Position numbers and translations under genes: made by a program | NCBI GenBank assembly: GCA_051294905.1 | Contig: CM119371.1 | Coordinates: 40,798,001-40,862,000 of the forward strand | From: Botryllus schlosseri | Lineage: Eukaryota | DNA length: 64,000 bases | Direction: 5' to 3' | Shown here: positions 19,401 through 35,973 of the stretch, in pieces | Numbering within the stretch: the stretch's first letter is position 1 | Layout: the number at the start of each line of letters is the position of its first letter | Notes under the pieces: model-generated | Told to the model about the DNA's origin: nothing | The model's input: the letters and a program-made list of their open reading frames with translations, nothing else | The model's database searches: none

Positions 19401-20159
19401 TTGCTGACACCCCAATATCTTTTACGCTGTAATATACGGATTTATTTGTGATAAATTAATTCTCAGTTATTGTTCAGACATTCAAATCTCGTATACTCAA
19501 AATATAAAATGTCCAAGTCAAATCGTATATGCGCCGATTAGTAAATACTTTGTCTTCAAAATAGTAACTACCTTTACAATTGAATAAAAAGATAGAGCAT
19601 ACGAATACAACCAGGATGAATTAATTCAAATTTGTGAGTTGTAATGATATAATCAAGTAAGTGAAACTAGATTTTTAACAATTGTTAATGTTGTGAATAA
19701 TTCTTTTGAGTTTGAAATGTGGCTGGATCAAAGTTGGTAGTCATGTTTGTCAAACCTATTTCAATTCACGCAATGTCAAAGTCCAAATATTTCATTCTGG
19801 ATTATTTGGATTTACCTTTAGTACATCCCGCGAATGGATTTAAAGTTGGCAAATTACCAAAATGATTGAATAATATCGGGTCAGAGATAGTTGGTATTGA
19901 TTCTATAAGTGTTAAAACAGCGGCGTGGAATGTGTGAATGATCCGATGAGGGTGAATGTTGGCGTCAGTAATATTCAGGTTACGTTCGATTCAACAGATC
20001 GCGTTAATAGGATTTGAGTTGGGTCGAATCAATACATTCAAATACGATTCAACTTGATTTGTGTAGTGAGTTACACTGATGACTCCCACTTTATCAAACG
20101 ATATGACATCGAACAGCGTCAACACTATGCAAGTCGGAGCAACTTCAAATTTTCACGTC

Positions 20160-21274
20160 AGTAGTATAGTCGATCGCTCGCATGCGGCTATAGGGTTCTT
20201 ATGGGCGGGGTGGCACGGTGCCGAGAAAACCGGGGGTGGCACGGTGACCCTTATATCTTATGGCGGGGGTGGCACGGTGCCATTGTGTCTTATGGCGGGG
20301 GTGGCACGGTTACTTTTTCGGGTATAGGCTGCGGCGGCACGGTGCCGCGAAAACTCGTGGTGACATGGTTACCTTTTCAGGTATAGGCGCGGTGACATGG
20401 TGACCTTTCAGGAGAGATGATTTGACTAACGTTGTGGGTATAGGCGCGGCGGCACGGTGTTGAATATGTATCAAGTAAATAGTCATGTGATTGGTCTTTA
20501 GTTAATGTGTATATTCCAAATTACGGTGAGTGCGACAATGACATATCGTTATTCTTATGGACGCGGCGATGATTCGTACTTTCGAGTATAGACATCCCTC
20601 GCGTGGTGTTGAATATGTACGAGTCACCAACAATAACCGCGCGGACGGAAACGTGGTTTGTTGTGAGGATTACGCGTGCGACCTATATTTCGAATGACCT
20701 GCGCGCTGACTTATTTCTCGTCCAGTCGCTACTATCGATTATTACACTAGACCGGTCAGTGTGAAATAGTTTGATCGTAAATTATGATATACGATGTCGT
20801 AGTTTAATCGTGTCAAATGACCGATCGTGTTCTCTTTCCTCGCTATTGATTGCTAGCTGAATAATACTTTCGGTTTATTCGCTGTTTCGCGCCTACAAAA
20901 TAATCTGCTGTTCACAGGCGCAACAAGAATCACAAGTATATACATTTACACATTCGTTTATTACTCTGAAATCAAACTCTTCACAAAAACACGTACAATC
21001 GTATCATTCACTTTTTTATCATCGCCAAAATTATCCAAGTATTCCTCGGTTGAAAACCCTTGAGCTCTTTTTATCAAGAATGCGATAGCATGATCTCCAC
21101 ACACATCTGAAGTTTTACTCTGTAACTGTTTCCCAGTCACTGAAAATTCATCCGGCTCCAGGAATTCGATTATCTGAGGTTTTAGTGGTCCGAAGCCTAG
21201 CGAATCATGAAAATGAGTATCGTCATCTCTGTATATAGACACCCAGTGAGACCCAGGCAAACTCGACTCATCGT
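20160..21274 (+). repeat. Left TIR of element C (1115 bp)
   Basis: Reverse complement of 34859-35973; contains GCACGGTGC-type internal repeats and the protease 3' part. Confidence 0.95.
20961..21274 (-). pseudogene. 5'-truncated duplicate of the protease gene inside the left TIR
   Basis: DESSLPGSHW...KSLISE is identical to the C-terminal part of 34729-35172; no ATG start (TTG only). Confidence 0.85.
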
Positions 21275-21279
21275 GCAAA

Positions 21280-21915
21280 CTATTCTTTCAATTCAACAAG
21301 TCTAGTTAACGGATCGATTTTCAAGCTGCCGACACAGTTTTTAACACGAGTGAGTTGATATTTCTTCTCGGGTACGAGCGAGGCTTTGTTCCATTGGTCC
21401 AAAACCACCTCACCAGTATCATCCTTCAATGTAAAACTGTATAATTTCAACTCCTTTCCGGCACCAGAATTGACCATCTTCTCCTCTCGAGAAACACAAG
21501 TAGCGGCGATCGAGACGTATTCATCTTTATTTCCGTATACCGATTCACAGGTCAATAATGGGTATTCTTCAGTCGTATGTCTCGATTTTCCATGTAGAGT
21601 TACTGACGAAGCCCGACCAAGTAATACAGCGGGTTTTCCAGTAAATTTATCAATTTGAACCCAACCGGATTTGACCATGAGTTTTTTTCGTTTGGTGAAT
21701 GCTTTCTCAATGTTCCCGAACAAATCACGATTGAAACACGTGAAAGATATCTCTTCGTTATTACCATCGATGAATATACCTTTGAGATATTGGCTAACGC
21801 CACCTCTTTTGGGTGATGAGACGAATTTGACGCCGACGTGAAAATTTGAAGTTGCTCCGACTTGCATAGTGTTGACGCTGCTCGATGCCATATCGTTTGA
21901 TAAAGTGGGAGTCAT
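21280..21915 (-). CDS. Tandem OB-fold protein, RPA/SSB-like (element C)
   Basis: First ATG at 21915. Same OB-like motifs as 8071-8706, with 6 aa differences. TATAAATA on the minus strand at ~21931-21938. Confidence 0.72.
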   Translation of the reverse strand: MTPTLSNDMASSSVNTMQVGATSNFHVGVKFVSSPKRGGVSQYLKGIFIDGNNEEISFTCFNRDLFGNIEKAFTKRKKLMVKSGWVQIDKFTGKPAVLLGRASSVTLHGKSRHTTEEYPLLTCESVYGNKDEYVSIAATCVSREEKMVNSGAGKELKLYSFTLKDDTGEVVLDQWNKASLVPEKKYQLTRVKNCVGSLKIDPLTRLVELKE

Positions 21916-22053
21916 CAACAAACCCGTCGATATTTATAGAATTAGGCACGTTGTATTGAGTGAGTTAACAGTCTTTGTATAATCCTGATGACCCGCGTGA
22001 ATAGACTTGGATTGAAATAAACTTTACAGGAGTTCTGTAAGAAAGGATGCCGT

Positions 22054-22407
22054 TCACAAGTGACAAACGACACGAATGAATTTTCTTCTTACCCAGTCAA
22101 TTATCAATGTACTGTAGTGAGTATTCAAGATGTCTGATGCTAAATCTCTGTACGCCGCTAGGGTACGTATGTCACTTTTCATCGCCGCAATGCTTATGAC
22201 ACTAAAAACCCCGTTCCAGTCGATGCCGTATGATCGAATCGAGTTAACCAATGCGGTAAAATCGCACTTTCGAACACGGCTCACGTTTTGTCCATGTACA
22301 TAGAAATCTAGTACTCCGTGGATGAATTTTTCCGTTTCGCTCAATGCGGGGGTTGTCAAGTTATGATAATAGAGAAGGTAATTCTCAATAATCGCGCTAG
22401 TTGCCAT
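22054..22407 (-). CDS. 117-aa helical protein, possibly a viral Bcl-2-like protein
   Basis: ATG-initiated ORF in the accessory region. SYGIDWNGVFSVISI resembles BH1 (DGVNWGRIVAL) and IIDWVRRK resembles the start of BH2. Confidence 0.5.
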   Translation of the reverse strand: MATSAIIENYLLYYHNLTTPALSETEKFIHGVLDFYVHGQNVSRVRKCDFTALVNSIRSYGIDWNGVFSVISIAAMKSDIRTLAAYRDLASDILNTHYSTLIIDWVRRKFIRVVCHL

Positions 22408-22778
22408 AACGAGTATATGTAACTATCAACTGAAAAAGTAAACCATGAGAATGACACCACAATGTGTTAAAATGGTGAAATACACCGCTCAGATTTCGAA
22501 AAAACAGATGTTGCGGGTGCGTTTGACATATGTGACACAATAAAATCGCCCGTTTCGCTAAACAGGAAATTCACTAAAGCGCAGTGTGCTGTGCGATTTT
22601 GAAAAAACAGATGTCCGCGGCCGCGTTTTGATCTGTGTGACACACTAAATACGTCCGGTTCTGAAATTCGGAAACACGACCGGTTCTGAGGATTACGCAG
22701 TGTGCGTGCGGCCTATATTTCGAATGACCTGCGCGCTGAATTATTTCCCGTCCAGCCGCATGCTACTATCGAATTAAA

Positions 22779-22789
22779 TATATAAATAG
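22779..22789 (+). promoter_or_regulatory. Putative TATA box
   Basis: TATATAAATAG ~90 bp upstream of ATG 22870, directly after an internal copy of a TIR segment. Confidence 0.5.
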
Positions 22790-22869
22790 CCAACACCGCG
22801 ATCTGATTGTTATACTTCGCTGTCGCAGACATAAACGTTGGTTGGAGCAGTTAGATTAATTATTGTACA

Positions 22870-23748
22870 ATGGCCGAGGCTCAGATAGATAATCTTGACA
22901 AATTTGGTTATGAACCAAATGCATTCGAATCGCAATTTGAAGAGAATGCGGATATCTTTGACGCGATTAATCCTGGTGATCTGATGACGCCTGATTTAAG
23001 AGTTGAATCCGCAGAACGCGACCTTACGGCAACGATCGAAATACGACCAAACCATGCAGATATAGCGCACCAGGCGTGGCTGAAGTCGGGTCAACTAGCT
23101 AGAGAAAGCGTGATTAATGATCTCGCGAACTTGTTGACGACACCGTGTGTACCGACCGACGAGACAGCCGTTAGCAACGAATTGCCGAATCCCGAGAAAC
23201 CGTCGACTTCTGGGGTGACGCTACCACGCTCTGCTGAGTCGCTATCGGTGGTTGATACTCCTAAATCTGTATCAATCGACAAGCCGACTCGAAAAAGAAC
23301 CATATCGATGGGGGTGGGCATACCGCCAGCTAAACAGCTTCGTAATGGGAAATCGAAAAATTTGAATCGTACCGAACCCAAACAGAAGGCTGGTAAGAAA
23401 CCTGTGAAATCTAAAAGCGGGAGTGACGATGATTTTCGCGATGACGCGAAGGGAAAGAAGAAGCAGGAAGAAAAGTTATGTCAATACACAGTTGACAAGA
23501 TGGTCACCTACCTCCAGACTATTGACGTTGTTAAGCCGCATTTAGGTTCAATACTATGTTATGTTGATTCATTGATGGAGAAAAAAAATTTGACTGTCAC
23601 AAAGCTCATGACTGACATCAAACGATTGCTTACTGTCAAGGGTCGGCGTTGGAGTCTTGATGAGATTCAACCTGAATTAAATACCGCAACCAATGAGTAC
23701 TTGCATCGACTTCTAGAAATTAGAACAAAATTGAAGTATAATTTGTGA
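22870..23748 (+). CDS. 292-aa hypothetical Polinton accessory protein (acidic N-terminus, disordered basic middle, helical C-terminus)
   Basis: Long ATG ORF in good context (ACAATGG) downstream of a TATA box; no family recognised. Confidence 0.75.
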   Translation: MAEAQIDNLDKFGYEPNAFESQFEENADIFDAINPGDLMTPDLRVESAERDLTATIEIRPNHADIAHQAWLKSGQLARESVINDLANLLTTPCVPTDETAVSNELPNPEKPSTSGVTLPRSAESLSVVDTPKSVSIDKPTRKRTISMGVGIPPAKQLRNGKSKNLNRTEPKQKAGKKPVKSKSGSDDDFRDDAKGKKKQEEKLCQYTVDKMVTYLQTIDVVKPHLGSILCYVDSLMEKKNLTVTKLMTDIKRLLTVKGRRWSLDEIQPELNTATNEYLHRLLEIRTKLKYNL

Positions 23749-24340
23749 TTGTGCTGAATGATTTTCATTGTTGTGAGTGTCTATTCTCAATTTCTGTTTT
23801 CCGTTTCAGATTTTACATTAGAGTCATAAATAAACAATAGATTCTAAAAGCGCAACCACTAGTGGTGCTGGCGCTCTTGTAATCTCGAATCAGCTGTTTA
23901 GGTCTTTCTCTCTGGGTGTCGAGTAGCGAACAACGTGGCTGACTGTCTGGGTATATTCGACTGTGATTGGTGGATAAGGAGTTAATTAGTAAGTTATTCG
24001 GTACGATTACTTTGATTTATGAATATAATTTGTTATTTATTTATCCGCCAGACAAAACAAGCGCGGGATTAAAGAATTGAAACGGTGAGTTATTACTGTT
24101 CCGAATGATAGGAGTGAGATGTAACGATTTTGTTGTTGAACAGACAGAATAAACTCAAGTTGAACGCACGAGTCTACTGGTAAGTTATCTGCTATAACAC
24201 AACGTTAATGAGCATAGCATGATGTGTTGTTTGTTTTATTAAGCATAAAGGAAGACACCAACAAAGAAACTAGATTGTAAGTAAGACTAGTTTAATGTTC
24301 CTCAAGTGTTGAATTTGACCACGTGTTACCAATTTTACAG

Positions 24341-27300
24341 ATGAGTCGACGCAGACAAAATCGTGTTCGCGAAGAAACGAATGATGCACCAGAGATCGGT
24401 GACGAACGCCAAGAAGTTGTAAATCAGAATTGGCAAGCGATAAAATCGTATGTAGTGAATCAGAGTCGGCGCGTGTATAATATTCGAGTCATCGATCGTG
24501 AGCTAGCGGATGTTTTCCGCGATATACAAGCAATATTTTTCTCAGAGTCGACTCGTTTCAAAATCAATTTCGCGTATGCATTTATTTTGTACCACGTCGA
24601 GACTCTAAGATTTCGCTATTTTCATGCATCGGCGAATGTTGATAGTGTATTAGAAACACCAGCGGCAATTTCAACACTAGCTAAATTCGATGAATTTGTT
24701 GAATCTATTCGCTTGGAAACCGCACTAGATGTGTTACAAAACTCTCGACCAAACACAAAGTCACTGCCGATCTGTGTGACTAATGTACAGTTTTATGTAT
24801 ATCCTACCGACGGCATGTTGATTGGGTGCGTTGGTATTAAAATACCTCCGGGTCTGACACAATCGAGATGTATCTCGACATTTACACGTCGAAAAAATAA
24901 GAAACTGTACAATGACAATCTTTGTGCTTTTCGCTGTATCGCCCACTCGCTAGGAAAAGATACAAAGGAAATGGCTCAACAGTTCACTTCGGTGTATGGT
25001 GTAAATGTAGAATCTGGTGTGACTCTCGACATGCTGGATGATATCGAGGTCTTGTTTAATGTGGCCATATTCGTGTACACCAAAACTGAAGGTAAAGCTA
25101 GTGCACTCCGGCGTAGTACCTATGAAGCGAAAGCTGTTTACCTACATTTGGAAGATCGACATTTTTGTCTCATTACTAACATGAACCGTTATGTGGAGAC
25201 CTATAGATGTGTTGTTTGTCAACGATTGTTTGATGAACAATATGATTTGACCAGACACAAATGTGTAACGGGTTCTGTTGAAGTGTTTCGCGGTGGCGTG
25301 TATACACCTCCTCTGAACATATTTGAAAAACTTGATCTAGAAGGGGTGTTTGTTCCTCATCAGCTTCGTTATTTCAAATACCGTATCGCGTTCAGTATAG
25401 AGAGTGTGTATGATACCTCAAAAACTTTGCGAGAGCACCAGAACATCCCCATCTCTGTTAGCATATCGTCTAATGTGGAAGGTTACTTGGAGTCGCATGT
25501 AATTGTCTCGAGTGGTGATACAAACGATTTATGCGCACAAATGATTGACCATTTTCACGATATTCAAAGTGAATCATTCAGACTGTCACTCACAGAATAT
25601 CGACCCTACCTGGACATGCTCGAAACTAAAATTACCGAAATGAAAGTGCTCGATCCTTCAAAACACCCAATACCCCTTGAACGTTTACAAGCGGAGTTTA
25701 TGAGTTATTTACGTCAAATCCCTGTTTTGTCGTTCAATGGTGACCGGTATGACTTGAACTGGCTCAAAGCGTACTTGTTTGGTTTTCTCGTTGACGACAA
25801 TCTTAGTGTACTGAAATGTGATAACAAATTTCTCTCAATGACGACCAACAGACTCAAATTCTTGGATATTGTGAATTACTTGGCACCCGGGTTCTCGTAT
25901 GATTCATATTTGGAAGCCTTCAAATGTAGCACCGCTAAAGCTCACTTCCCGTACCAGTTTCTGAGTAGTTTGGAAAAGTTGAATAACTCGAGTCTTCCTA
26001 CCCACGACGAGTTTTACAGCTCGCTAAAGGGTTGCAATATATCAACATCAGAATATGAAAACTGTTTGAAGGTTTGGAACGACAACAAAATGACCTCTCT
26101 GCGTGATTATCTCAAATGGTGCAACGCGAACGATACTCACGACCTCATAGAGGTTTTAGAAAAACAATTCCAATCTTTCAAAAGCCAATTCAATGTTGAT
26201 ATATTCAAGGATGCGGTCTGCCTGCTCGGGGTTGTATCGAGACATCTTTTTAATAGCATACCGCGTGATTTCACAATGTTCAACGACAAACATAAAGATC
26301 TGTTTTCGCTATTCAGGGATAATTTAGTGGGTGGACCATCGATCATTTTCCATCGATACCCAAAACCGGGTGTAACTCGAATCAAAGAACATGTCTATAA
26401 GGAAAATACACAGATTGTGCAACATATAACAAGTTTGACCAGCGACTCACTCTATCTGTATGCTTTGAGTCGACCAAGTCCAACCGGATTTGCGGTACGT
26501 TGGCAACCAATCGACGCCGAGTGTACTAAATTCAAACCTGTCAAGACCGCACCGAAATGCTCAGAGACTGTAACCCAGTGGATGAATTGGTATTCTCATG
26601 TTCACAAGGTGCATGTTCACCACGCTTTTAACGGACCTGAAATTCATGTGGGCATGCGCAATTATCGACCTGATGGGTTTTATCGTAATTCGGCCGGACA
26701 AGGGATAATCTTATTGTTCCTTAGATGCGATTTTCACGCCCACGATTGTAGATTCGGATGTGATGACCCAGTCCGTCGAGAGCGAGCTAAACGTGTTCAT
26801 GATTATTACAAAAGTCTAAATTATCGAGTTGTATGTAAATGGGAATGTGAGTGGAATATTGAGAAGAGAATTCCTCATATTGTGCGATATCTCGATGGTA
26901 TTCAACCACAACTGACTCGTGCCAAGTCTGTCACCCCACAGAAATTGATGGAGATGGTGATGAATGGTACTTTCTTTGGTTGTTTGCTGGTTGATATTTG
27001 TACTCGATCACAGTCGAAAAAGCGATTCGTTGAACTCCGCCCGATATTCAAAAATACCACAGTGTCTCGCGATACCGTGAAAAGTGACATGAATCAGCTC
27101 GCTGTAGATCGGAAATCACCCAGTAAACCCACTGACATGTTGGTTGCGTCGTACTGCGGTAAGAAAATCTTGCTAACCTCCGACTTGATCAAATGGTATG
27201 TAGATCACGGGTTGGTGGTATCAAAAATTCATGAGGCTGTCGAATTCACCAAAAAGACCTGTTTTGACAACTTTGCGAAAAATGTCTCAGACTGTCGACG

Positions 27301-27925
27301 TGCTGGCGATCCTAACATGGCGATTATTGAGCTAGCGCAAAAACTCGCTGCGAATTCTTGTTATGATCGTGAGTTAATGAATCCGCGTAAACTCAAACAA
27401 ACCACGTTCTGTGATAAAAGTGAATTGGACGCAAATGTGGAGGATCGCTTTTTCATCAAGTGCGAAGAAATAAACACAGATCTATTTGAAATAACGAAGC
27501 ACCCTCAAAAGATCGAGCAAGATAACTGCATTCAAGTATCGTTCTGGTTGTATAATAATGTCAAATTACGGATGTTGTCGTTTTTTTATGACTGTTTATG
27601 CAAATATTTTCGTGCCGACAGCTTCATGCTACTTTCGGTGGATATCAACTCGTTTTTCATCGCGCATTCAGCCCCACTCGATGACATTCTCATTTCCGAG
27701 AAAAGGAACGAATTTTACTGTGATTACGAGAATTGGTTTCCACGTTATTTTTGCGATGAGCATCGAGACGAATTCTTGACTGATCCGATTTCTTTCGACC
27801 GCTCGAGACAATGCTGTAAAGATACGTATGCTCATTATCTTCATCAACCTGGTTTGATGGAAGTGAGATACGACGCCGATGCATCTTTCCACGGTCTCAA
27901 TCGCTTTCGCAGTGACCAAAGATAA
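24341..27925 (+). CDS. Protein-primed family B DNA polymerase (pPolB) homologue, catalytic motifs substituted
   Basis: ATG at 24341 follows TTTTACAG. Polinton pPolB hallmarks: DNLCAFRC, zinc-finger-like CxxC...H, FNGDRYDL, LKFLDIVNYLAPGFSY, FPY, LVGGPSIIFHRY, KLAANSCY, KLRMLSFFYD, PGL. Confidence 0.93.
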   Translation: MSRRRQNRVREETNDAPEIGDERQEVVNQNWQAIKSYVVNQSRRVYNIRVIDRELADVFRDIQAIFFSESTRFKINFAYAFILYHVETLRFRYFHASANVDSVLETPAAISTLAKFDEFVESIRLETALDVLQNSRPNTKSLPICVTNVQFYVYPTDGMLIGCVGIKIPPGLTQSRCISTFTRRKNKKLYNDNLCAFRCIAHSLGKDTKEMAQQFTSVYGVNVESGVTLDMLDDIEVLFNVAIFVYTKTEGKASALRRSTYEAKAVYLHLEDRHFCLITNMNRYVETYRCVVCQRLFDEQYDLTRHKCVTGSVEVFRGGVYTPPLNIFEKLDLEGVFVPHQLRYFKYRIAFSIESVYDTSKTLREHQNIPISVSISSNVEGYLESHVIVSSGDTNDLCAQMIDHFHDIQSESFRLSLTEYRPYLDMLETKITEMKVLDPSKHPIPLERLQAEFMSYLRQIPVLSFNGDRYDLNWLKAYLFGFLVDDNLSVLKCDNKFLSMTTNRLKFLDIVNYLAPGFSYDSYLEAFKCSTAKAHFPYQFLSSLEKLNNSSLPTHDEFYSSLKGCNISTSEYENCLKVWNDNKMTSLRDYLKWCNANDTHDLIEVLEKQFQSFKSQFNVDIFKDAVCLLGVVSRHLFNSIPRDFTMFNDKHKDLFSLFRDNLVGGPSIIFHRYPKPGVTRIKEHVYKENTQIVQHITSLTSDSLYLYALSRPSPTGFAVRWQPIDAECTKFKPVKTAPKCSETVTQWMNWYSHVHKVHVHHAFNGPEIHVGMRNYRPDGFYRNSAGQGIILLFLRCDFHAHDCRFGCDDPVRRERAKRVHDYYKSLNYRVVCKWECEWNIEKRIPHIVRYLDGIQPQLTRAKSVTPQKLMEMVMNGTFFGCLLVDICTRSQSKKRFVELRPIFKNTTVSRDTVKSDMNQLAVDRKSPSKPTDMLVASYCGKKILLTSDLIKWYVDHGLVVSKIHEAVEFTKKTCFDNFAKNVSDCRRAGDPNMAIIELAQKLAANSCYDRELMNPRKLKQTTFCDKSELDANVEDRFFIKCEEINTDLFEITKHPQKIEQDNCIQVSFWLYNNVKLRMLSFFYDCLCKYFRADSFMLLSVDINSFFIAHSAPLDDILISEKRNEFYCDYENWFPRYFCDEHRDEFLTDPISFDRSRQCCKDTYAHYLHQPGLMEVRYDADASFHGLNRFRSDQR

Positions 27926-28549
27926 AATTAATCACGGCATTGAATGTTATTGTAGTGAATATTTTGTGTGTGGTGTTATTGTATTTTATTTGTATATTTT
28001 GCTTGTTTGGTGTGATTTATTTGTATTGTGTGTTCATGTATCATTTGTTTTCCAGATGGATAACACTATTACCTATCTAAAGTCTGTCATGTCGTTAGAT
28101 TTTAATGGTTTACATGTAGAGATGACTGCCTTGGAGCGGGAATTACCACATTTCATGATTCTTGGTTCTACCAAACAACTCTCAACGTCGATGATACCCG
28201 ATTGATGAAAAGCAGACCACCAAAACTTGTGATCCGTGGTAAGGTCTATAGTTTGGTATAGTAACACTTTTAGATTTTAAAGCGCTATGAACGTATTACG
28301 AATCCTCTTATGTGATTTATTATTTTACAGATTGGGGTCAGCTGCTTGACGACCTGAAGCGCTCGTAACACTGCAACTTCCACTGACGATGAGGAACAGA
28401 TGAAGATTTCATAACCCGCGGAAAATTGTTAAATCGAACTCTACTGGGATTATATATTCCACTAGAACAAGATGACTACAACAGTGGATATTCCCAACCT
28501 TGTTGATATATAAACACATACACTTTATCGAGTTTTCAATAAACAACAA

Positions 28550-29161
28550 ATGATGGAATTGATCCACCCATTCGCGTGTATTGTGAGTGGTCCTTCAAGA
28601 AGTGGGAAGACTACTTTTGTTGCAAAGCTGATTAGACATGCGACATCCATGATTAAACCTAGTGTGTCCAGGGTCGTATATTGTTACAATAATTATCAGG
28701 AGGTTTTCAAGACGATGCATAACGTAGAATTCCACGCTGGTCTAGATATTTTAGAAGAGTTGAAGGCTTGCTCTGAAGACACCTTGATTATAGTGGATGA
28801 TTTCATGACTGAGACAGCGAAAATTGCAGACTACTTTACAAGATTTTCACATCATTCGGCCAAGTCAATTTGCTATAGCACGCAGAACCTGTACCACAAG
28901 GGTAAAGGGGCACGTGACTTGAGTCTTTCAAGCTCGTATATGGTGATTTTCAAGAATCCGCGCGACCAACAACAGATCAGTTTTCTTGGTCGACAAATGT
29001 ACCCAAACTCTAGATTTTTAACAGAGGCTTATCGTGACGCTGCTAGACAACCTCATAGTTATTTATTCCTTGATCTCACGCAAGAAGCACCTGAAAATCG
29101 ACGAGTTATGACCAATATATTTCCTGGTGAAACCATGGTGGTTTATAGCCCGATGGTATAA
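28550..29161 (+). CDS. A32/FtsK-like DNA packaging ATPase
   Basis: HPF...GPSRSGKTT Walker A, LIIVDD Walker B, HH, TQNLY, FKNPRD, PHSYLFLDL. TATATAAA at 28507. Confidence 0.93.
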   Translation: MMELIHPFACIVSGPSRSGKTTFVAKLIRHATSMIKPSVSRVVYCYNNYQEVFKTMHNVEFHAGLDILEELKACSEDTLIIVDDFMTETAKIADYFTRFSHHSAKSICYSTQNLYHKGKGARDLSLSSSYMVIFKNPRDQQQISFLGRQMYPNSRFLTEAYRDAARQPHSYLFLDLTQEAPENRRVMTNIFPGETMVVYSPMV

Positions 29162-29194
29162 ATAGCCAAGCGCAGAGACGACTTTAAACTCAAA

Positions 29195-29542
29195 ATGACC
29201 AAGGTACCAGCTCGGACACGGCGGCATATTCCCACACTGGAGTTCCTACATAAAAGTAAACCCGAGATACGCAAGCAAATTATATCGGGAGCCAGCAAAG
29301 AATTGATCGAGTGTATATGCGATTGTACAAAGAACATTTTAAATGGTAACATCCCTCTTTCAAAGTATAAAAGAAAGCGACTATCAGCTCATAAATGTAG
29401 TTTACGTCGACTTGTCAGGAAAGACATCCCTATTCGACATAAGAAACGTATGGTTAACCAGCATGGGGGTATGTTTATGACTCTATTATCAAGCATCCTA
29501 CCCGTCGTCACTGGTTTACTCGGTAATCTTTTCAAAAAATGA
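29195..29542 (+). CDS. Conserved small basic Polinton virion protein with QxGG motif and C-terminal amphipathic helix
   Basis: ICDCTKNILNGNIPL...KKRMVNQHGG-MFMTLLSSILPVVTGLL; position after the ATPase is typical. Confidence 0.8.
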   Translation: MTKVPARTRRHIPTLEFLHKSKPEIRKQIISGASKELIECICDCTKNILNGNIPLSKYKRKRLSAHKCSLRRLVRKDIPIRHKKRMVNQHGGMFMTLLSSILPVVTGLLGNLFKK

Positions 29543-29934
29543 CTTCTTTTAAAAAAATCTTCATAAATCCGAGCCCGATCAACGGAGCTGACGTTCAGAA
29601 ATTGAATTTGGATATCGACAAATGTATGAGCGACATATTACAGATGAACATACCCCAAGAACGAAAATTAGCCTTATATAACGACGCACTAAATCGTTAT
29701 CAAACAAAACACGACACACTGAATCAACCGATGAAAATCGATATATCAGAACAAAGGAATCTATTTTCGGCAAGTGAGTTGGACGCACTGCGACGCCTGA
29801 TCAAGGGTGAACCATCAAGGATTCCTATACCATCGCCGAGTAGCCAACGAAGCAAAGTAAAGACTCAGCATGCCAAGACGAAAAGCGGTCGTACACCCAA
29901 GACCCCGAGACGATACGGATGGGAGCCATACTAA
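29539..29934 (+). CDS. 131-aa Polinton protein upstream of the integrase
   Basis: LDIDKCMSDIL...ERKLALYNDALNRY and terminal WEPY; ATGA overlap with the upstream ORF. Confidence 0.75.
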   Translation: MTSFKKIFINPSPINGADVQKLNLDIDKCMSDILQMNIPQERKLALYNDALNRYQTKHDTLNQPMKIDISEQRNLFSASELDALRRLIKGEPSRIPIPSPSSQRSKVKTQHAKTKSGRTPKTPRRYGWEPY

Positions 29935-30940
29935 GTATTTCACGCCAGGGCTACCCGGTAGTTATCGCGGTGCATACGTATTCTCTAGAGGGCGGAATAG
30001 AGCCAAAGTCAAGGAGTTTCTTTCGAGCAAGGACGCGTACACAAAACATTTTCCCTATCGAAAGAAATTTAAGAGACCTAGAGTGATTACGTCCGGTCTC
30101 GGTGTTCAGTATCAAACCGATCTCATGCATATGCAAAATCTTTCAGAAGAAAACGATAATTTTAAATATGTGTTGGTGACGATCGATTGTTTCAGCCGAT
30201 TTTTATATCTGTATCCACTCAAAAACAAAACCTCGCAAGGTATTATTCGTGGATTCAAGGAAATATTTAAGGATCGTATACCTCATGTTATTCAAAGTGA
30301 TCAAGGTTCTGAGTTTACTAATCGTGCGTTTCAGACTTTCTTAAAAGAGAACAATGTGCGACATTTTCATACAAATAGTGAACTGAAAGCATCGATATGC
30401 GAGCGTGTTATTCGTACTGTGAAGCAAGTGTTATACCGGTATTTCACGCATAATAAGACTTTGAATTATGTCAGTGTCCTGTCTGAGATATGCCGGGGGT
30501 ATAACACTACTTTTCACGTTGCTATAGGGTGTCCTCCAGCGGATGTTGATTATTCAAATCAAGAACAAATTTTCCATAGGTTATACGGTGACATGACCCC
30601 TAAAAAACCCAAACTAACTATCGGCACACCGGTCAGGATTTCGAAATCACGTGGTAATTTTGTAAAAAGTGCCTTGGCGAGTTGGACCGAAGAAATCTTT
30701 TTCGTATCTCAATGTCGTAAAGGTGACCCTCCTACTTATCAATTGAAAGACTACCATGGTGAAGTTATAGACGGTCGCTTTCAGCGTGAAGAGTTACAAC
30801 CAATAACTAAAAATAATAATATTTACAATATCGAGAAAATCCTGTCTACTCGCAGGAAAGGAAAGAAAACGCAATATTTTGTAAAATGGTTGGGTTACCC
30901 ATCTACATTTAATTCCTGGGTCTCGGATTTGTATAAATAG
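29870..30940 (+). CDS. Retroviral-like (rve) DDE integrase with C-terminal chromodomain
   Basis: YQTDL, IDCFSR, QSDQGSEF and ICERVIRT give an intact D-D-E triad. IEKIL...YFVKWLGYPSTFNSWV is a chromodomain. Start uncertain. Confidence 0.95.
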   Translation: MPRRKAVVHPRPRDDTDGSHTKYFTPGLPGSYRGAYVFSRGRNRAKVKEFLSSKDAYTKHFPYRKKFKRPRVITSGLGVQYQTDLMHMQNLSEENDNFKYVLVTIDCFSRFLYLYPLKNKTSQGIIRGFKEIFKDRIPHVIQSDQGSEFTNRAFQTFLKENNVRHFHTNSELKASICERVIRTVKQVLYRYFTHNKTLNYVSVLSEICRGYNTTFHVAIGCPPADVDYSNQEQIFHRLYGDMTPKKPKLTIGTPVRISKSRGNFVKSALASWTEEIFFVSQCRKGDPPTYQLKDYHGEVIDGRFQREELQPITKNNNIYNIEKILSTRRKGKKTQYFVKWLGYPSTFNSWVSDLYK

Positions 30941-30949
30941 ACGCTGAAA

Positions 30950-31183
30950 ATGTTGTTCAACCAAACTATGGATTCTGATTCCGGCTCATCTCGCATGGGT
31001 CAAGTCTCGAACAGTCTGAAAAACCAGATTGTGTTTATTGTACAGATTTGTATGTTAGTGTGTGTAATCGTGTTTTCCTTATATCAAATTTCTGTCGGGG
31101 TGGATCGTGAGATATATTTAACGCTACTGTCTTCTTCACTTGGGTATTTATTACCGAATCCATCACCTCACCGTATATGTTGA
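30950..31183 (+). CDS. Small two-TM membrane protein
   Basis: Hydrophobic IVFIVQICMLVCVIVFSL and IYLTLLSSSLGYLLPNP, between integrase and penton as in many Polintons. Confidence 0.7.
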   Translation: MLFNQTMDSDSGSSRMGQVSNSLKNQIVFIVQICMLVCVIVFSLYQISVGVDREIYLTLLSSSLGYLLPNPSPHRIC

Positions 31184-31196
31184 AAGAAACAATAAA

Positions 31197-32027
31197 ATGT
31201 TGTTGACTTTACCTTCTAATGCGAGTTTGGATAAATTTCCGAATACTAGCACAGATTTTCAAACGGAACTTTACAAAGAATTAGAAATGAATCGCCATGA
31301 GCTAGGATTATGTGAGCTGACCTTCCCCCATGATTTCCAACCACGAATTGAAGTGACAGCGAAAAGTATCGGTTTTGGATTTGTCGATGCGAATGGATAC
31401 ACCGAACGGTATTATATTCCCGAAGGTTCGTATTACAGCATCGGTGAAATGTTAGAATCGTACGAGAAATATTACATGGGGGACATTTTCATTTTACAAG
31501 GATTCGGTGACTTTAGAATCACATTCAGAAGATTAGTCACGAGTAAAAAAAGACACAAGCGGGGTGTACCCATAAATACCGATACCGCAGACTCTAGCGT
31601 CAAACACATACCCCGTACCACGCATGATTCACCCGAGCCTTACGGACTGATACCGCTTGGTTCTGTGTTGGACACAATAACATTTAGACGCGTTGTATCT
31701 CGTCGCCGCGGAGTGGTAGAATTTATATTTACACCCGCGATAAAGTTGGAACGGATTGATAAGGTTTATGTGTATTGCGATCTGATACAACCAAGACCAC
31801 ATGGTAACAAGCTGCAACAACTTTTACGGGTGGTTACTGTAACCGCTAAACCGAATGAAAACCAAATCAACATATTCCCAAAACCATACTTCTTTGCTTT
31901 AGCGAGAAACAATTTTAGAACGATACGAATTTATCTACGTGATGCAGCTGGCAACCCTATTAAATTTCGAAAAGCACCAGTGACAGTAACCCTACGCTTC
32001 CGTCGTAGAGCTGTTGATTCAATATGA
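31197..32027 (+). CDS. Minor capsid protein (penton), paralogue 1
   Basis: LTLPSNAS..FPNT..F; VYVYCDLI...G...LLRVV; PYF; IRIYLRD..G.PI.F; VTLRFRR. Confidence 0.9.
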   Translation: MLLTLPSNASLDKFPNTSTDFQTELYKELEMNRHELGLCELTFPHDFQPRIEVTAKSIGFGFVDANGYTERYYIPEGSYYSIGEMLESYEKYYMGDIFILQGFGDFRITFRRLVTSKKRHKRGVPINTDTADSSVKHIPRTTHDSPEPYGLIPLGSVLDTITFRRVVSRRRGVVEFIFTPAIKLERIDKVYVYCDLIQPRPHGNKLQQLLRVVTVTAKPNENQINIFPKPYFFALARNNFRTIRIYLRDAAGNPIKFRKAPVTVTLRFRRRAVDSI

Positions 32028-32695
32028 GTTACATCACGTTGTCTGGCACCCAAGGTGAATTCTCGGTGGTGTTACCGAATGAAATTATTTGTAATGAGCT
32101 TGCGTTGATGGATATGAGTTTTGTCAGTGAATCTCTTGATCGAATTATAATCAATCGTGATCAAGCACTCTGGGAGCTACATAATGAGAAAGATCGAATA
32201 GTAGAAGCGTACCTAACACCACTTGGGAATTATGCAAACAACCTCGAGTTGACGCGAAGAATATTATCTGACAGTTTCAAACACTGTTTCACCGAAAGAA
32301 TCAACGATGAACTTTTCCGAATTCGTTACTCGAAACGTATCACACTCCACCCCACGGATATATTCACGAATTATTTCAGTGTAGTTGATCAAGTGTCGAC
32401 ACCAGTATGTAATGTCACGTCGATCAAACCTAAACCAACTCAACCCCACCTCAGATATCTTTTTGTGTATATCAATGTACTACGACATCATCCGGTGGGT
32501 GATTACATGAGTCAATTGCTTCGTGTGATCCAAGTAAATAACGAGACGTGTATGAGACAAGAAGTTGTATATGAAAAACCGTTTTATTTCCCAGTATCGA
32601 TTAACCACATCCGCGATATAAAAATCACCATCCGGGATCAATACGGTCAGTTAGTACATGATATAGAGACCACATTGACACTCCACGCACGATGA
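32024..32695 (+). CDS. Minor capsid protein (penton), paralogue 2
   Basis: LFVYINVL..HPVGD....LLRVI; PFYFPV; IKITIRDQYG; TLTLH. Confidence 0.85.
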   Translation: MSYITLSGTQGEFSVVLPNEIICNELALMDMSFVSESLDRIIINRDQALWELHNEKDRIVEAYLTPLGNYANNLELTRRILSDSFKHCFTERINDELFRIRYSKRITLHPTDIFTNYFSVVDQVSTPVCNVTSIKPKPTQPHLRYLFVYINVLRHHPVGDYMSQLLRVIQVNNETCMRQEVVYEKPFYFPVSINHIRDIKITIRDQYGQLVHDIETTLTLHAR

Positions 32696-33087
32696 AAATA
32701 GTGACGTTAACCACCTCTATGCTTGGTGTTGATTTTGAACACAGACTACTCACCATCAACAACATCCCGACAAGATATTGTGAATTAGCCCTCATGGAGA
32801 TCGATTTCACTTTAACCGAACCGGCGATTGGTCAATATTTGTTTGTGTATTGCGATATTATTCACCCTCACTTACTTGGAGATGTGTTAGCGCGTTTATT
32901 ACGAGTTATACCGCTGACACCTGGTGATGTCACGCATAATTGGGTAGCGACAAATCCGTATTATTTCCCTGTTTCAAAAGATGTTGTAGATTCTGTATGT
33001 CTTTACCTCAGGGATGAGTTTGGGGAACCTATAAATATAATAAGTCGTTCATTGCAAGCTACATTTAACATTAGGAAGCGATTATGA
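32692..33087 (+). CDS. Minor capsid protein (penton), paralogue 3, minimal 131 aa
   Basis: ELALMEIDF directly followed by YLFVYCDII.PHLLGD..ARLLRVI; NPYYFPV; LYLRDEFGEPI. Confidence 0.85.
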   Translation: MKIVTLTTSMLGVDFEHRLLTINNIPTRYCELALMEIDFTLTEPAIGQYLFVYCDIIHPHLLGDVLARLLRVIPLTPGDVTHNWVATNPYYFPVSKDVVDSVCLYLRDEFGEPINIISRSLQATFNIRKRL

Positions 33088-33455
33088 AAGTTGTTTTCAC
33101 GTGTGATCATCATTCTGTCCATCGTCATTATAACCAGACAGGTGATGGTTATGGATATTTTAGCGGTGGAGTTCAAGCCGGTTCCGGTATTGGGAGTTTG
33201 TTTAAATCACTCGGTCGTTTAGTGACACCTATTGCGAAATACGCCGGCGGTCAATTGTTACGGACTGGAGGTGAAATAGCGAGAGATCTATTACGGGGTA
33301 ACTCGATCAAGTCTAGTGTTGTCAAGAGAAGTAAACAAGCTGGCGGTCGAGTGATTGATAAAATTTTAACCCCAAAAGCTATAAAAAGGAAAAAAACAAA
33401 GTCAAAGAACACTTCATCCAAACGTCGTCGTAAACAACAGGATATATTCGACTAA
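33084..33455 (+). CDS. Gly-rich/basic Polinton core (membrane-lytic-type) protein
   Basis: YNQTGDG...F.GG.QAGSGIGSLFKSLGRLVTP, basic tail, DIF terminus; immediately upstream of the MCP. Confidence 0.8.
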   Translation: MKVVFTCDHHSVHRHYNQTGDGYGYFSGGVQAGSGIGSLFKSLGRLVTPIAKYAGGQLLRTGGEIARDLLRGNSIKSSVVKRSKQAGGRVIDKILTPKAIKRKKTKSKNTSSKRRRKQQDIFD

Positions 33456-33460
33456 GAACT

Positions 33461-34732
33461 ATGTTGATGCACGCGGGTTCCCGAGAATGTCATAACTCCG
33501 GATTAAACATATTTAGTATACCCCACACGCAAACCAGTATTGAGGAATCGCAATATGTCGTCGTCAAACCCCATAGTTTAGGTAATGTCATGGAAGTACA
33601 ATTACCAAGGACGGATCGATATATGGATCTACAAAACACGTTCTTGAGATTACGTTTGAAGCTCACTAAACGCGATGGAACTGATTTAGCAAACGATACA
33701 CAAGTGGGTCTTGTCAATAACATGATGGATTCTCTTTTCAAACAAATCGATGTAACTATTTCAAATGAGGTTATCACAAATTCGGATAATTGTCATGCCT
33801 ACAAAGCTTATATCTCTCGGTTGTTGAATGATACTCATGGTGCCTCGGAGAGTTTTGTGCAAGGACAAGGTTTTTATAAAGATGTCGCTGGCTCTATGGA
33901 TGTTCTTGGTGCAGCGAATACTGGATATGTTAAACGAAAAGACCTTACCAAAAACAGCACCCCGCTAGAGTTGATCGGAAAAATTCGAATGGGTCTTTTT
34001 GAACAGTCTAGATGTATGTTGGATAATGTCGACATGAAATTAAAATTTACACGTAACGAAGATAATTTCTGTCTGCTCGGTGACGTGGAGGATGTACAAA
34101 TTGTTTTACTCGAAATGGAGGTGTATGTCAAACAGATGAAGATCGCTGAAAGTGTAAGCTTAGCACACAAGTCTGTATTACAGAAGAATACTGCCAAGTA
34201 CCCCTGGATACGCTTACAAATGTCGACTCATACATTCGCGGCTGGTTTATCGAAAATTGATAGAGAGTTAGTTAGCGGCACCATGCCAAAGAAGATCGTA
34301 ATTGGTTTAGTTGAGACCACGACATTTAACGGTGTTCGAGCCAAAAATCCATTCAACTTTAAACACTTTGATGTTCAAAATCTTTCGTTAAGTGTGGACG
34401 GGCGACAAATTAACGGACGCGAATTTCATTTCGATTTTGATAAACACGGCGGACTCGAAGGTTATATGACACTATTCTCTCAGACAGGTCGCTGGGAATC
34501 CGAGACACCTTTAAATATTTCACGCAAAGATTATGTTAATGGATACACTCTTTTTGTGTTTGATTTGACACCTGATAATAGTTTGGGATGTTATCAACTT
34601 CATAAGACGGGAACTGTGCATCTGGTTTTGACTACATCGAAGCCTTTACCAACCTCCGTAACCTTGTTATGTTTGAAGGAGTTTCAACATCTTCTACAAC
34701 TGAATCAAAAAAGACAAGTCGTCGAAATATGA
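33461..34732 (+). CDS. Double jelly-roll major capsid protein
   Basis: LNIFSIPHTQTSI, YMDLQNT, VNN..DSLFKQIDV, YKAYI..LLN, PKKIVIGLV, NPFNFKHFD, GYTLFVFDLTPD. Confidence 0.93.
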   Translation: MLMHAGSRECHNSGLNIFSIPHTQTSIEESQYVVVKPHSLGNVMEVQLPRTDRYMDLQNTFLRLRLKLTKRDGTDLANDTQVGLVNNMMDSLFKQIDVTISNEVITNSDNCHAYKAYISRLLNDTHGASESFVQGQGFYKDVAGSMDVLGAANTGYVKRKDLTKNSTPLELIGKIRMGLFEQSRCMLDNVDMKLKFTRNEDNFCLLGDVEDVQIVLLEMEVYVKQMKIAESVSLAHKSVLQKNTAKYPWIRLQMSTHTFAAGLSKIDRELVSGTMPKKIVIGLVETTTFNGVRAKNPFNFKHFDVQNLSLSVDGRQINGREFHFDFDKHGGLEGYMTLFSQTGRWESETPLNISRKDYVNGYTLFVFDLTPDNSLGCYQLHKTGTVHLVLTTSKPLPTSVTLLCLKEFQHLLQLNQKRQVVEI

Positions 34733-35172
34733 ATACGTCTGAGATCAATGATATTCTCTATAACCACCCTGACACACAAAGTCTATATCTAGGAACTTAT
34801 CCAGTAGATCAGCTACCGAAGAAACCAACTAGCGGAAAATTCGCTATCACCATTAATTACGATGAGTCGAGTTTGCCTGGGTCTCACTGGGTGTCTATAT
34901 ACAGAGATGACGATACTCATTTTCATGATTCGCTAGGCTTCGGACCACTAAAACCTCAGATAATCGAATTCCTGGAGCCGGATGAATTTTCAGTGACTGG
35001 GAAACAGTTACAGAGTAAAACTTCAGATGTGTGTGGAGATCATGCTATCGCATTCTTGATAAAAAGAGCTCAAGGGTTTTCAACCGAGGAATACTTGGAT
35101 AATTTTGGCGATGATAAAAAAGTGAATGATACGATTGTACGTGTTTTTGTGAAGAGTTTGATTTCAGAGTAA
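34729..35172 (+). CDS. Adenain/Ulp1-like cysteine maturation protease
   Basis: INYD...PGSHWV, FHDSLG and LQSKTSDVCG give a His-Asp-Cys triad plus Gln. ATG overlaps the MCP stop; AATAAA at the stop. Confidence 0.92.
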   Translation: MNTSEINDILYNHPDTQSLYLGTYPVDQLPKKPTSGKFAITINYDESSLPGSHWVSIYRDDDTHFHDSLGFGPLKPQIIEFLEPDEFSVTGKQLQSKTSDVCGDHAIAFLIKRAQGFSTEEYLDNFGDDKKVNDTIVRVFVKSLISE

Positions 35173-35973
35173 TAAACGAATGTGTAAATGTATATACTTG
35201 TGATTCTTGTTGCGCCTGTGAACAGCAGATTATTTTGTAGGCGCGAAACAGCGAATAAACCGAAAGTATTATTCAGCTAGCAATCAATAGCGAGGAAAGA
35301 GAACACGATCGGTCATTTGACACGATTAAACTACGACATCGTATATCATAATTTACGATCAAACTATTTCACACTGACCGGTCTAGTGTAATAATCGATA
35401 GTAGCGACTGGACGAGAAATAAGTCAGCGCGCAGGTCATTCGAAATATAGGTCGCACGCGTAATCCTCACAACAAACCACGTTTCCGTCCGCGCGGTTAT
35501 TGTTGGTGACTCGTACATATTCAACACCACGCGAGGGATGTCTATACTCGAAAGTACGAATCATCGCCGCGTCCATAAGAATAACGATATGTCATTGTCG
35601 CACTCACCGTAATTTGGAATATACACATTAACTAAAGACCAATCACATGACTATTTACTTGATACATATTCAACACCGTGCCGCCGCGCCTATACCCACA
35701 ACGTTAGTCAAATCATCTCTCCTGAAAGGTCACCATGTCACCGCGCCTATACCTGAAAAGGTAACCATGTCACCACGAGTTTTCGCGGCACCGTGCCGCC
35801 GCAGCCTATACCCGAAAAAGTAACCGTGCCACCCCCGCCATAAGACACAATGGCACCGTGCCACCCCCGCCATAAGATATAAGGGTCACCGTGCCACCCC
35901 CGGTTTTCTCGGCACCGTGCCACCCCGCCCATAAGAACCCTATAGCCGCATGCGAGCGATCGACTATACTACT
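34859..35973 (-). repeat. Right TIR of element C (1115 bp)
   Basis: Mirror of 20160-21274. Confidence 0.95.

Follow-up and report, generated by a model that had tools for sequence, protein, structure and literature searches.

A polymerase-dead form of a Polinton in Botryllus schlosseri keeps its pseudo-polymerase gene under purifying selection and recombines with a canonical form

Introduction

Polintons, also called Mavericks, are defined as self-synthesizing elements with their own protein-primed polymerase. Here we analyze a complete Polinton of 15,814 bp located at 20160–35973 (+) of a 64,000-nucleotide stretch of the Botryllus schlosseri genome (assembly GCA_051294905.1, contig CM119371.1, positions 40,798,001–40,862,000). 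This whole stretch is referred to as the window, and coordinates given without a locus are window coordinates. The element possesses the long terminal inverted repeats (TIRs), the 6-bp target-site duplication (TSD) and the rve-type integrase expected of a Polinton. The protein-primed DNA polymerase of family B (pPolB) is represented by a homologous gene, an open reading frame (ORF) of 1194 codons at 24341–27925 (+), but the catalytic motifs of its product are replaced.

Polinton pPolBs are described as comprising a terminal-protein (TP) domain, a vOTU protease and a polymerase (PMC11161782). The pPolB2-type polymerases from marine nematodes and molluscs are known to hold an inserted VSR domain (bioRxiv 10.1101/2023.08.22.554363). 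The window ORF resembles the canonical pPolBs of these two sources in domain order, vOTU-like fold, phi29-like fold and VSR-like insertion. It differs from them in that both active sites are disabled, the KxY motif and the thumb are deleted and PF03175 is not matched. An inactivated protein-primed DNA polymerase (pDNAP) domain has been described in Tlr1-like helicases, which occur in polinton-like viruses, Tlr1 and transpovirons (PMC5499653; PMC11161782). The shared features are a pPolB-derived palm, mutated motifs, a lost C-terminal motif and membership in the same virus class. However, the Tlr1-like proteins are described there as fused to a superfamily 1 helicase and devoid of an exonuclease domain (PMC11161782), and they define whole lineages without pPolB, whereas here a single genome contains an active form alongside the dead one, and the two recombine. 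Pfam scans of the window ORF revealed no helicase family, its alignment is collinear with ordinary pPolBs and, unlike the Tlr1-like proteins, it retains an alignable exonuclease (Exo) region with an intact Exo II motif. Further family B polymerases given as inactivated in PMC5499653 are the C-terminal half of Pol epsilon, archaeal inactive PolBs, herpesvirus UL8 and poxvirus F12. Like the window ORF, these proteins are pseudo-enzymes under selection, with predicted structural roles in their case; they are described as fixed parts of autonomous genomes, whereas here we are dealing with a multi-copy mobile variant, apparently reliant on its sister.

A different kind of comparison is offered by non-autonomous transposons, satellite viruses and defective interfering genomes, which have lost the activity of a replication enzyme and share termini with an autonomous partner. 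Elements of this kind usually delete the lost gene. In contrast, the element described here has kept a 3.6-kb ORF at a ratio of nonsynonymous to synonymous substitution rates (dN/dS) of 0.24, together with its other genes. Two hallmarks of helper dependence are nevertheless present: a partner with related termini resides in the same genome (the termini being known from one canonical element), and mobility continued after the enzyme had been lost. The accessible part of PMC3014272 deals with ordinary Polintons only, and our full-text literature search, supplements aside, retrieved no Polinton family in which a full-length pPolB devoid of catalysis is conserved next to an active one.

Results

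Replaced catalytic motifs and lost parts of the pseudo-polymerase

The ORF is open from the ATG at 24341 to the stop codon at 27923–27925. When 5.8 billion protein clusters were searched, 879 matches emerged; the top ones show 37–38% identity across 99% of the query, and most carry PF03175 (protein-primed family B polymerase). The ORF itself has no Pfam match even at E-values up to 10; a canonical sister copy from the same genome scores 30.9 bits to PF03175 (cut-off 25.8). Motif columns were set by alignments with 13 distant homologues and, additionally, with 54 homologues plus one canonical copy.

In family B polymerases, the Asp of motif A and the second Asp of motif C bind the catalytic metals. 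Both of these residues are replaced. Motif A (26438–26455), DANALY in the family, reads TSDSLY, the catalytic Asp having become Thr700, with an Asp two residues downstream. Motif C (27641–27652) has changed from DTDS to DINS, starting at D1101, so that the second Asp is now Asn1103. Motif B (27341–27367) reads KLAANSCYD instead of KLLGNSAYG (Gly1004 to Ala, Gly1009 to Asp). The exonuclease site is affected as well: in Exo I (25391–25402) the family FDFE is replaced by F351-S-I-E354, with Ser352 (AGT; GAT or GAC in canonical copies) in place of Asp, and in Exo III (26120–26134) YNxxD is replaced by C594-N-A-N-D598, with Cys594 in place of Tyr. Exo II (25733–25759, FNGDRYDLN) retains its Asn and Asp. 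In the PGL motif (27848–27871; PGL itself being residues 1170–1172), PGLFKxE has turned into PGLMEVRY, the near-invariant Lys being replaced by Glu1174.

PGL ends 22 residues ahead of the C-terminus of the ORF, which, as the alignment shows, lacks KxY as well as about 85 residues at this end. Relative to a canonical element, the 3′ junction (27890–27955) lacks about 220 bp after 27889, which in canonical copies encode KxY and the thumb; three residues including the KxY Lys are gone as well. A tblastn search detected no thumb-coding sequence in any frame of the 64-kb window. All these motifs lie on the forward strand. A sequence-only reading of the window had reported the uninterrupted frame, the motif substitutions, a C-terminus some 22 residues after PGL with neither KxY nor thumb, and the need for two nucleotide changes in several of the swaps. 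Its coordinates all proved correct, the alignments placed the substituted residues in the motif columns and confirmed the truncated end, and two changes are indeed needed for both D352S (GAT>AGT) and D700T (GAC>ACC).

Copies of the dead and canonical forms in the genome

The 495-Mb genome from which the window comes was searched in six frames, and the best 39 of 380 candidates, which were scored, fell into two groups of loci. Twenty loci (L001–L020, the window's own included) are 89–94% identical to the window ORF at the amino acid level, and the other 19 are 78–79% identical and have open frames of about 1295–1300 residues. We refer to the two groups as variant and canonical. All 20 close loci have the variant state at every motif covered by a readable frame, along with the truncated end. 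Searching with the variant 3′-end DNA identified at least 38 places at 92–100% identity, one of them partial (best 40 of 120 candidates). Eighteen of these, additional to the close loci, were read over the 3′ 650 nt: D(I/V)NS was present in 16 and the variant motif B in 13, the others being frameshifted, uncovered or missed by the pattern. None of the 38 variant places, where readable, has the canonical motif state. Such sharing of motif states is far more than expected by chance and, since it extends to all close and further copies, the defect is family-wide rather than specific to one copy. Moreover, the substituted codons are fixed in 16/16 intact variant copies, with synonymous variation at the motif C Asn (AAC in 13, AAT in 3).

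The analogous search with canonical 3′-end DNA found at least 40 places, and all 40 that were scored (the best of 116 candidates) are of the canonical type. In the canonical group, 10/10 copies feature FDIES, YNAID, LDSNSLY, KLAGNSSYG, MDTDS, PGLMKVEY, SKNY and a full thumb, except that in L027 the longest frame ends ahead of motif C. ORFs are open in 16 of the 20 variant and about 16 of the 19 canonical loci. Beyond this genome, a search of 1.84 billion representative sequences yielded nothing above 39% identity save one 259-aa fragment of the canonical type, so that other species provide evidence neither way regarding the dead form.

The dead block is accompanied not only by the thumb deletion but also by the near-complete loss of a neighboring gene, which the sequence-only reading had not included. 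Canonical elements have a 175-codon ORF directly after pPolB (L031 9282–9809), with a 195-codon counterpart in a third Polinton family (L039 1901–2488 (−)); the 175-aa ORF matches no Pfam family. In variant copies, a diverged stretch corresponds to the first 53–112 residues of this gene (mostly about 59), detected in 10/20 copies at E<1e-3. The window retains a 49-codon remnant at 28056–28205 (+). The exception among variant copies is L011, which has a complete gene of the 175-aa type at 95% identity. A 108-codon ORF at 27879–28205 was considered as a possible gene and rejected, being open in 1/20 copies, the window's own. The third family (L039 2496–5501 (−), G000:C11) has a capsid 79% and an integrase 65–67% identical to those of the window element; its pPolB shows canonical Exo, A and C motifs, KxY and thumb, with motif B reading KLSGNVIYE in one copy.

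Purifying selection on the pseudo-polymerase

For intact ORFs, 16 of the variant and 9 of the canonical type, we estimated dN/dS by the pairwise Nei–Gojobori method (NG86), with 95% bootstrap confidence intervals (CIs). L004, L009, L010, L011 and L027 were set aside for stops or truncations, and the bootstrap and window calculations further exclude L014 and L015 as near-duplicates of L013. Over the whole ORF, dN/dS is 0.241 (CI 0.208–0.278) for variant and 0.100 (0.083–0.119) for canonical copies. The respective values are 0.265 and 0.161 for the N-terminus, 0.171 (0.124–0.227) and 0.056 for Exo, and 0.248 (0.194–0.318) and 0.072 for the polymerase (Pol) region. In 60-codon windows of the variant form, dN/dS stays at or below 0.59; around motif B it is 0.42, compared to 0.02 in canonical copies. 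The variant copies differ from each other at 4–10% of nucleotides with their frames still open, and the nearest sampled relative of a copy differs by 4–8%, the trio L013–L015 excepted. For a median variant pair with 268.5 nucleotide differences, given that 4.7% of random substitutions make stops, 12.7 stops would be expected under neutrality; the 16 compared variant copies contain none. Taken together, these data show that the variant ORF is under purifying selection.

At the same time, the dead form changes faster than the canonical one. Relative-rate tests with distant outgroups counted 61–93 variant-specific against 25–39 canonical-specific replacements, an excess located in Exo and Pol, to which the N-terminus of the full-length subfamily adds little. 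In a triplet test with the third family as outgroup, Pol codons with single differences gave nonsynonymous to synonymous counts of about 16/34 on the variant and about 5/38 on the canonical branch. These rate differences indicate that the protein encoded by the dead block evolves 2–3 times faster than its active sister and far slower than neutrally. Gene conversion from canonical copies was considered as the main source of the low dN/dS and rejected: 44 of 752 windows (150 nt) were flagged, four of them inside Exo–Pol, in L018 and L019.

Two forms of one recombining population

The window element was compared end to end with a canonical element (L031/L032), which has the TSD AGTGTC on both flanks. 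Identity is 95–99% upstream of pPolB, falls from about 90% to about 75% inside the gene, is lowest just 3′ of it and returns to 96.6% over 28270–35676, a stretch that includes the ATPase, integrase, capsid and protease genes. The capsid candidate has 80 full-length genomic matches at 96–100% amino acid identity, and capsids next to variant (e.g. L007, L018 and L020) as well as canonical (L021–L025) polymerases are 99–100% identical to that of the window. Likewise, the integrase is 96–100% identical across most copies of either form.

In phylogenetic trees, Exo and Pol split into two deep clades, variant and canonical, whereas the vOTU part is mixed. Full-length variant copies are 93–99% identical to their closest canonical counterparts at residues 1–125 (150-nt windows), identity remains mixed up to about residue 330, and from residue 351 it is 73–91%. 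Synonymous divergence in Pol is about 1.0 between the forms and 0.13–0.21 within each. The trees, the identity profile and the divergence together place a recombination boundary just ahead of Exo I (about residues 330–350) and indicate that, compared with the copies now present, the dead block is old. Thus, the dead and canonical forms make up a single recombining, recently active Polinton population, exchanging the TP/vOTU part of the gene and the rest of the element but remaining distinct between about residue 350 and the end of the gene. The sequence-only reading was supported in three checks that it had set: the substitutions are not the decay of one copy (as seen in the 20 close and 18 further copies, none of them canonical), dN/dS is not near 1 (0.24 overall, about 0.25 in Pol), and the same genome harbors a canonical-pPolB family whose termini are similar (at least 40 copies). 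Its proposal of a satellite-type lineage has to be modified. A dead-polymerase family does exist beside a canonical one, but the two are forms within one recombining population, and the dead form does not constitute a lineage of its own.

Variant elements begin with AGTAGTATAG... or AGTAGTTATATAG... and the canonical one with AGTAGTAGTATAG... (one element), and a box, GGGTTCTTATGGGCGG, is common to both. Terminal sequences vary from copy to copy, and the two ends of a single element can differ as well (L033–L038; window 20160–20177), the observed versions being AGTAGTATAG, AGTAGTTATATAG and AGTAGTAGTATAG. Slippage on terminal repeats during protein-primed initiation could account for this variation.

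Nine of the 20 close loci (L012–L020, e.g. G000:C10:5658365-5661706) constitute a subfamily, G2, with an in-frame deletion of residues 64–142, which removes the core of the TP domain; dN/dS within G2 is 0.22. In the tree, Pol sequences of G2 interleave with those of the full-length subfamily, and the deletion therefore moved by recombination. Three G2 members, L013, L014 and L015, reside on three separate contigs and are 0–0.09% apart over the ORF. Their TSDs differ (CCCGTC, GTGGTG and GACGTG, respectively) and their flanks have no mutual homology. They are independent integrations of elements without polymerase catalysis and without the TP core. The integrase match in L014 and L015 is limited to residues 1–279 of 356. 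The window's copy is also young, as seen from its perfect TIRs and intact TSD.

Domain architecture and predicted structure

The ORF is organized as TP, vOTU, zinc finger, Exo and Pol, all on the forward strand. The TP-like domain D1 (24398–24820, about aa 20–160) is 93–99% identical to canonical copies at the nucleotide level. The following segment (24833–25195) contains Cys195 and His274 of the vOTU domain, both invariant across 56 aligned sequences, and is followed by a C2H2-like zinc finger (25202–25264, aa 288–308) with invariant C290, C293, H306 and C308. A structural model of residues 1–340 (mean predicted local distance difference test, pLDDT, 78.6) weakly matched viral OTU proteases (TYMV, MRFV 7mic, OTUD1) with E-values of about 0.01 and probabilities of 0.9–1.0, and also, again weakly, Y-family polymerases. 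These OTU and Y-family matches of the modeled region agree with the TP–vOTU architecture outlined in PMC11161782. For the model of residues 331–1194 (pLDDT 71), the top match was phi29 polymerase (2pyj_B, E=4.1e-5). A sequence-profile search of solved structures returned VSR endonuclease and zinc-finger matches only, and no polymerase. The VSR-like endonuclease insertion occupies the interval between motifs A and B (26573–26860, about aa 745–840; Vsr profile match with E=0.0016). Its HGC-type motif reads FLRCDFHAH in the variant form, FLGCHFHAH in the canonical form and FHGCYFHGC in distant homologues.

The element and its neighboring genes

The element is flanked by the TSD CACGTC at 20154–20159 and 35974–35979. 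Its TIRs, starting with AGTAGTATAG..., span 20160–21274 and 34859–35973 and match perfectly over 1115 bp, in line with the absence of mismatches noted earlier by eye. The right TIR takes in the 3′ third of the protease ORF (34859–35172), and the left TIR consequently holds a duplicate open frame of 105 codons, 20961–21278 (−). The element sits within an ORF that belongs to an older, fragmentary Polinton copy of opposite orientation; further TIR-like repeats extend to about 37832. The insertion split the older copy's 211-aa-type ORF into halves at 20077–20159 and from 35974 onward. This ORF is a paralogue of a 211-aa ORF inside the window element (21280–21915 (−)), in which the intact, uninterrupted insertion target is visible at 21810–21870. 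The inner 211-aa ORF has OB-fold/RPA-like features (language-model score of 0.92–0.94, a lead only) and is possibly a single-strand DNA-binding protein.

Downstream of the pseudo-polymerase, all on the forward strand, lie a packaging-ATPase candidate (28550–29161; weak AAA/P-loop Pfam matches, Walker A GPSRSGKT by eye), a retroviral-type integrase with a chromodomain (29870–30940), a candidate major capsid protein assigned by position only (33461–34732) and a candidate cysteine protease recognized by eye only (34669–35172). Pfam matches to rve (PF00665, E=4.4e-16) and chromo (E=4.3e-8) agree with the earlier description of the integrase as intact. The ORFs of the ATPase, capsid and protease have open frames, and their size and order fit a Polinton, the identification being made by eye and position, as was the reading of the Walker motifs and of the protease triad, by eye in the translations; the Pfam scan of window ORFs produced no match for capsid or protease. 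Three ORFs of 276, 223 and 131 aa in tandem at 31197–33087, likewise without a Pfam match, have a common LLRV(I/V) motif and C-terminal halves that look alike by eye; they may be paralogues.

Transcript data

Of the listed data sets that contain the stretch, none is registered as RNA. Over the pseudo-polymerase ORF, the raw RNA-seq runs X22 and X24 (about 6% of each) give a depth of 0–1, and 96–97% of the reads fit only partly. In run X3, whose RNA status was guessed, contigs cover 25968–28607. Single contigs of this run skip 24179–24251 (GT..AG) and 24274–24341, immediately 5′ of the ATG, which hints at introns in the 5′ leader. The top RNA-seq depth inside the element, 7–10, is found over the 211-aa ORF (21280–21915). 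A peak at 28080–28607 (about 17 in X22) shows loose ends and poly-A tails near 28570. As nearly all reads fit only partly, the peak transcripts probably come from other copies, and we rejected the peak as expression of the variant gene, this stretch being common to many copies.

Discussion

Given that Polintons are expected to synthesize themselves, a whole family of recently mobile copies with the same replaced catalytic residues calls for an explanation. The one we consider reasonably probable is that these elements represent a polymerase-dead, helper-dependent Polinton form, in which the pseudo-polymerase is kept for a non-catalytic role. The canonical polymerase from co-resident elements with similar termini would copy the dead-polymerase elements in trans, and the integrase common to both forms would then integrate them. 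The dead Exo–Pol module, we infer, would be retained for a non-catalytic task performed at the termini or together with the helper in a complex; for example, it might bind TP-capped ends or the helper polymerase itself, either favoring its own genome or competing. Supplying the TP, on the other hand, fails to explain the retention of the ORF, because G2 copies have lost the TP core, and TP and vOTU are located upstream of the dead block.

A number of points weigh against this explanation. The motif C window, although disabled, has a dN/dS of 0.08, a constraint as strong as in the canonical form. There is an Asp two residues past the lost Asp of motif A, and the first Asp of motif C is retained. 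In view of this constraint and the remaining Asp residues, the sequence leaves room for a remodelled active site. G2 copies display the same dN/dS despite lacking TP residues 64–142. The dN/dS values themselves are pairwise NG86 estimates on recombining, non-independent copies rather than codon-model likelihoods, and they leave out L004, L009, L010, L011 and L027, which have stops or truncations. The end-to-end comparison of the two forms covers one canonical element (L031/L032). Finally, production of the protein and copying of variant elements by the canonical polymerase are predictions.

Could the dead elements spread without protein-primed replication? Integrase-mediated cut-and-paste, together with host repair or host polymerases, might suffice, the ORF being retained for something other than replication, for instance for its vOTU deubiquitinase together with a structural scaffold, or else for regulation or anti-defence. 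The intact integrase, nearly identical in most copies, is in keeping with this possibility, as are the invariant vOTU Cys and His and the recent integration of G2 copies devoid of the TP core. However, such a scenario leaves unaccounted for both the dN/dS of 0.17–0.25 in Exo–Pol, which lies downstream of vOTU, and the coexistence and recombination with a canonical family having similar termini. The capsid and packaging genes, still intact in the variant elements, also speak against it. We therefore regard spread by integrase only as unlikely.

A pseudo-enzyme that has kept its fold while its catalysis was removed might also serve mainly for interference. As a dominant-negative factor acting on the ends or on TP, it might restrain canonical elements, the variant being their competitor or tamer. 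Long coexistence, reflected in a synonymous divergence between the forms that greatly exceeds that within each, and similar copy numbers fit this idea. Nevertheless, interference still needs a source of replication and so represents an addition to helper dependence rather than an alternative to it; as an explanation in its own right we find it doubtful.

Less probable still is an autonomous element whose protein is an active polymerase with a site rebuilt around Asp702 and Asp1101. Both residues are close to, or part of, the original motifs, and purifying selection extends across the palm, down to the value found around motif C. The same caveat of rebuilt activity has been allowed for other inactivated pDNAPs, according to PMC5499653. 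On the other hand, a rebuilt site would have to cope with the loss of seven functional elements, namely the Asp of Exo I, the Tyr of Exo III, the Asp of motif A, the Gly of motif B, the second Asp of motif C, the Lys of PGLxK, and KxY together with the entire thumb. It is also difficult to reconcile with amino acid replacement in Exo and Pol 2–3 times faster than in the canonical family, with a constraint on motif B about 20 times weaker and with the failure to match PF03175. As for copies that are simply decaying, with frames open through youth, the window copy is indeed very young, but neutral decay is contradicted by frames that stay open at 4–10% nucleotide divergence where neutrality predicts about 13 stops per pair, by an upper CI for dN/dS of only 0.28 and by the synonymous variation of the motif C Asn codon, which makes this explanation highly improbable.

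Helper dependence with a non-catalytic role of the pseudo-polymerase might be part of a broader arrangement. We put forward, tentatively, a stable two-form population, in which an old dead Exo–Pol block persists beside the active allele under frequency-dependent or balancing selection, with free recombination outside the block, and has acquired a new function, for instance capturing the helper polymerase or TP-capped ends.

Regardless of the exact role of the protein, a Polinton that is complete in other respects, but has a polymerase unworkable by the known mechanism, is present here in at least 38 genomic copies; its polymerase gene is nevertheless conserved and its integration is ongoing. 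These copies and the canonical elements form a natural candidate pair of helper and dependant, differing in essentially one gene block. Such a pair opens the way to tests of Polinton DNA replication, of non-catalytic roles of pPolBs and of the origin of cheating and pseudo-enzymes in virus-like transposons. The dead form is also a plausible early stage in the emergence of the inactivated pPolB domains of polinton-like viruses and transpovirons. If the population indeed consists of two stably maintained forms, the dead one would be a living intermediate on the way to the inactivated pPolB domain of polinton-like viruses.

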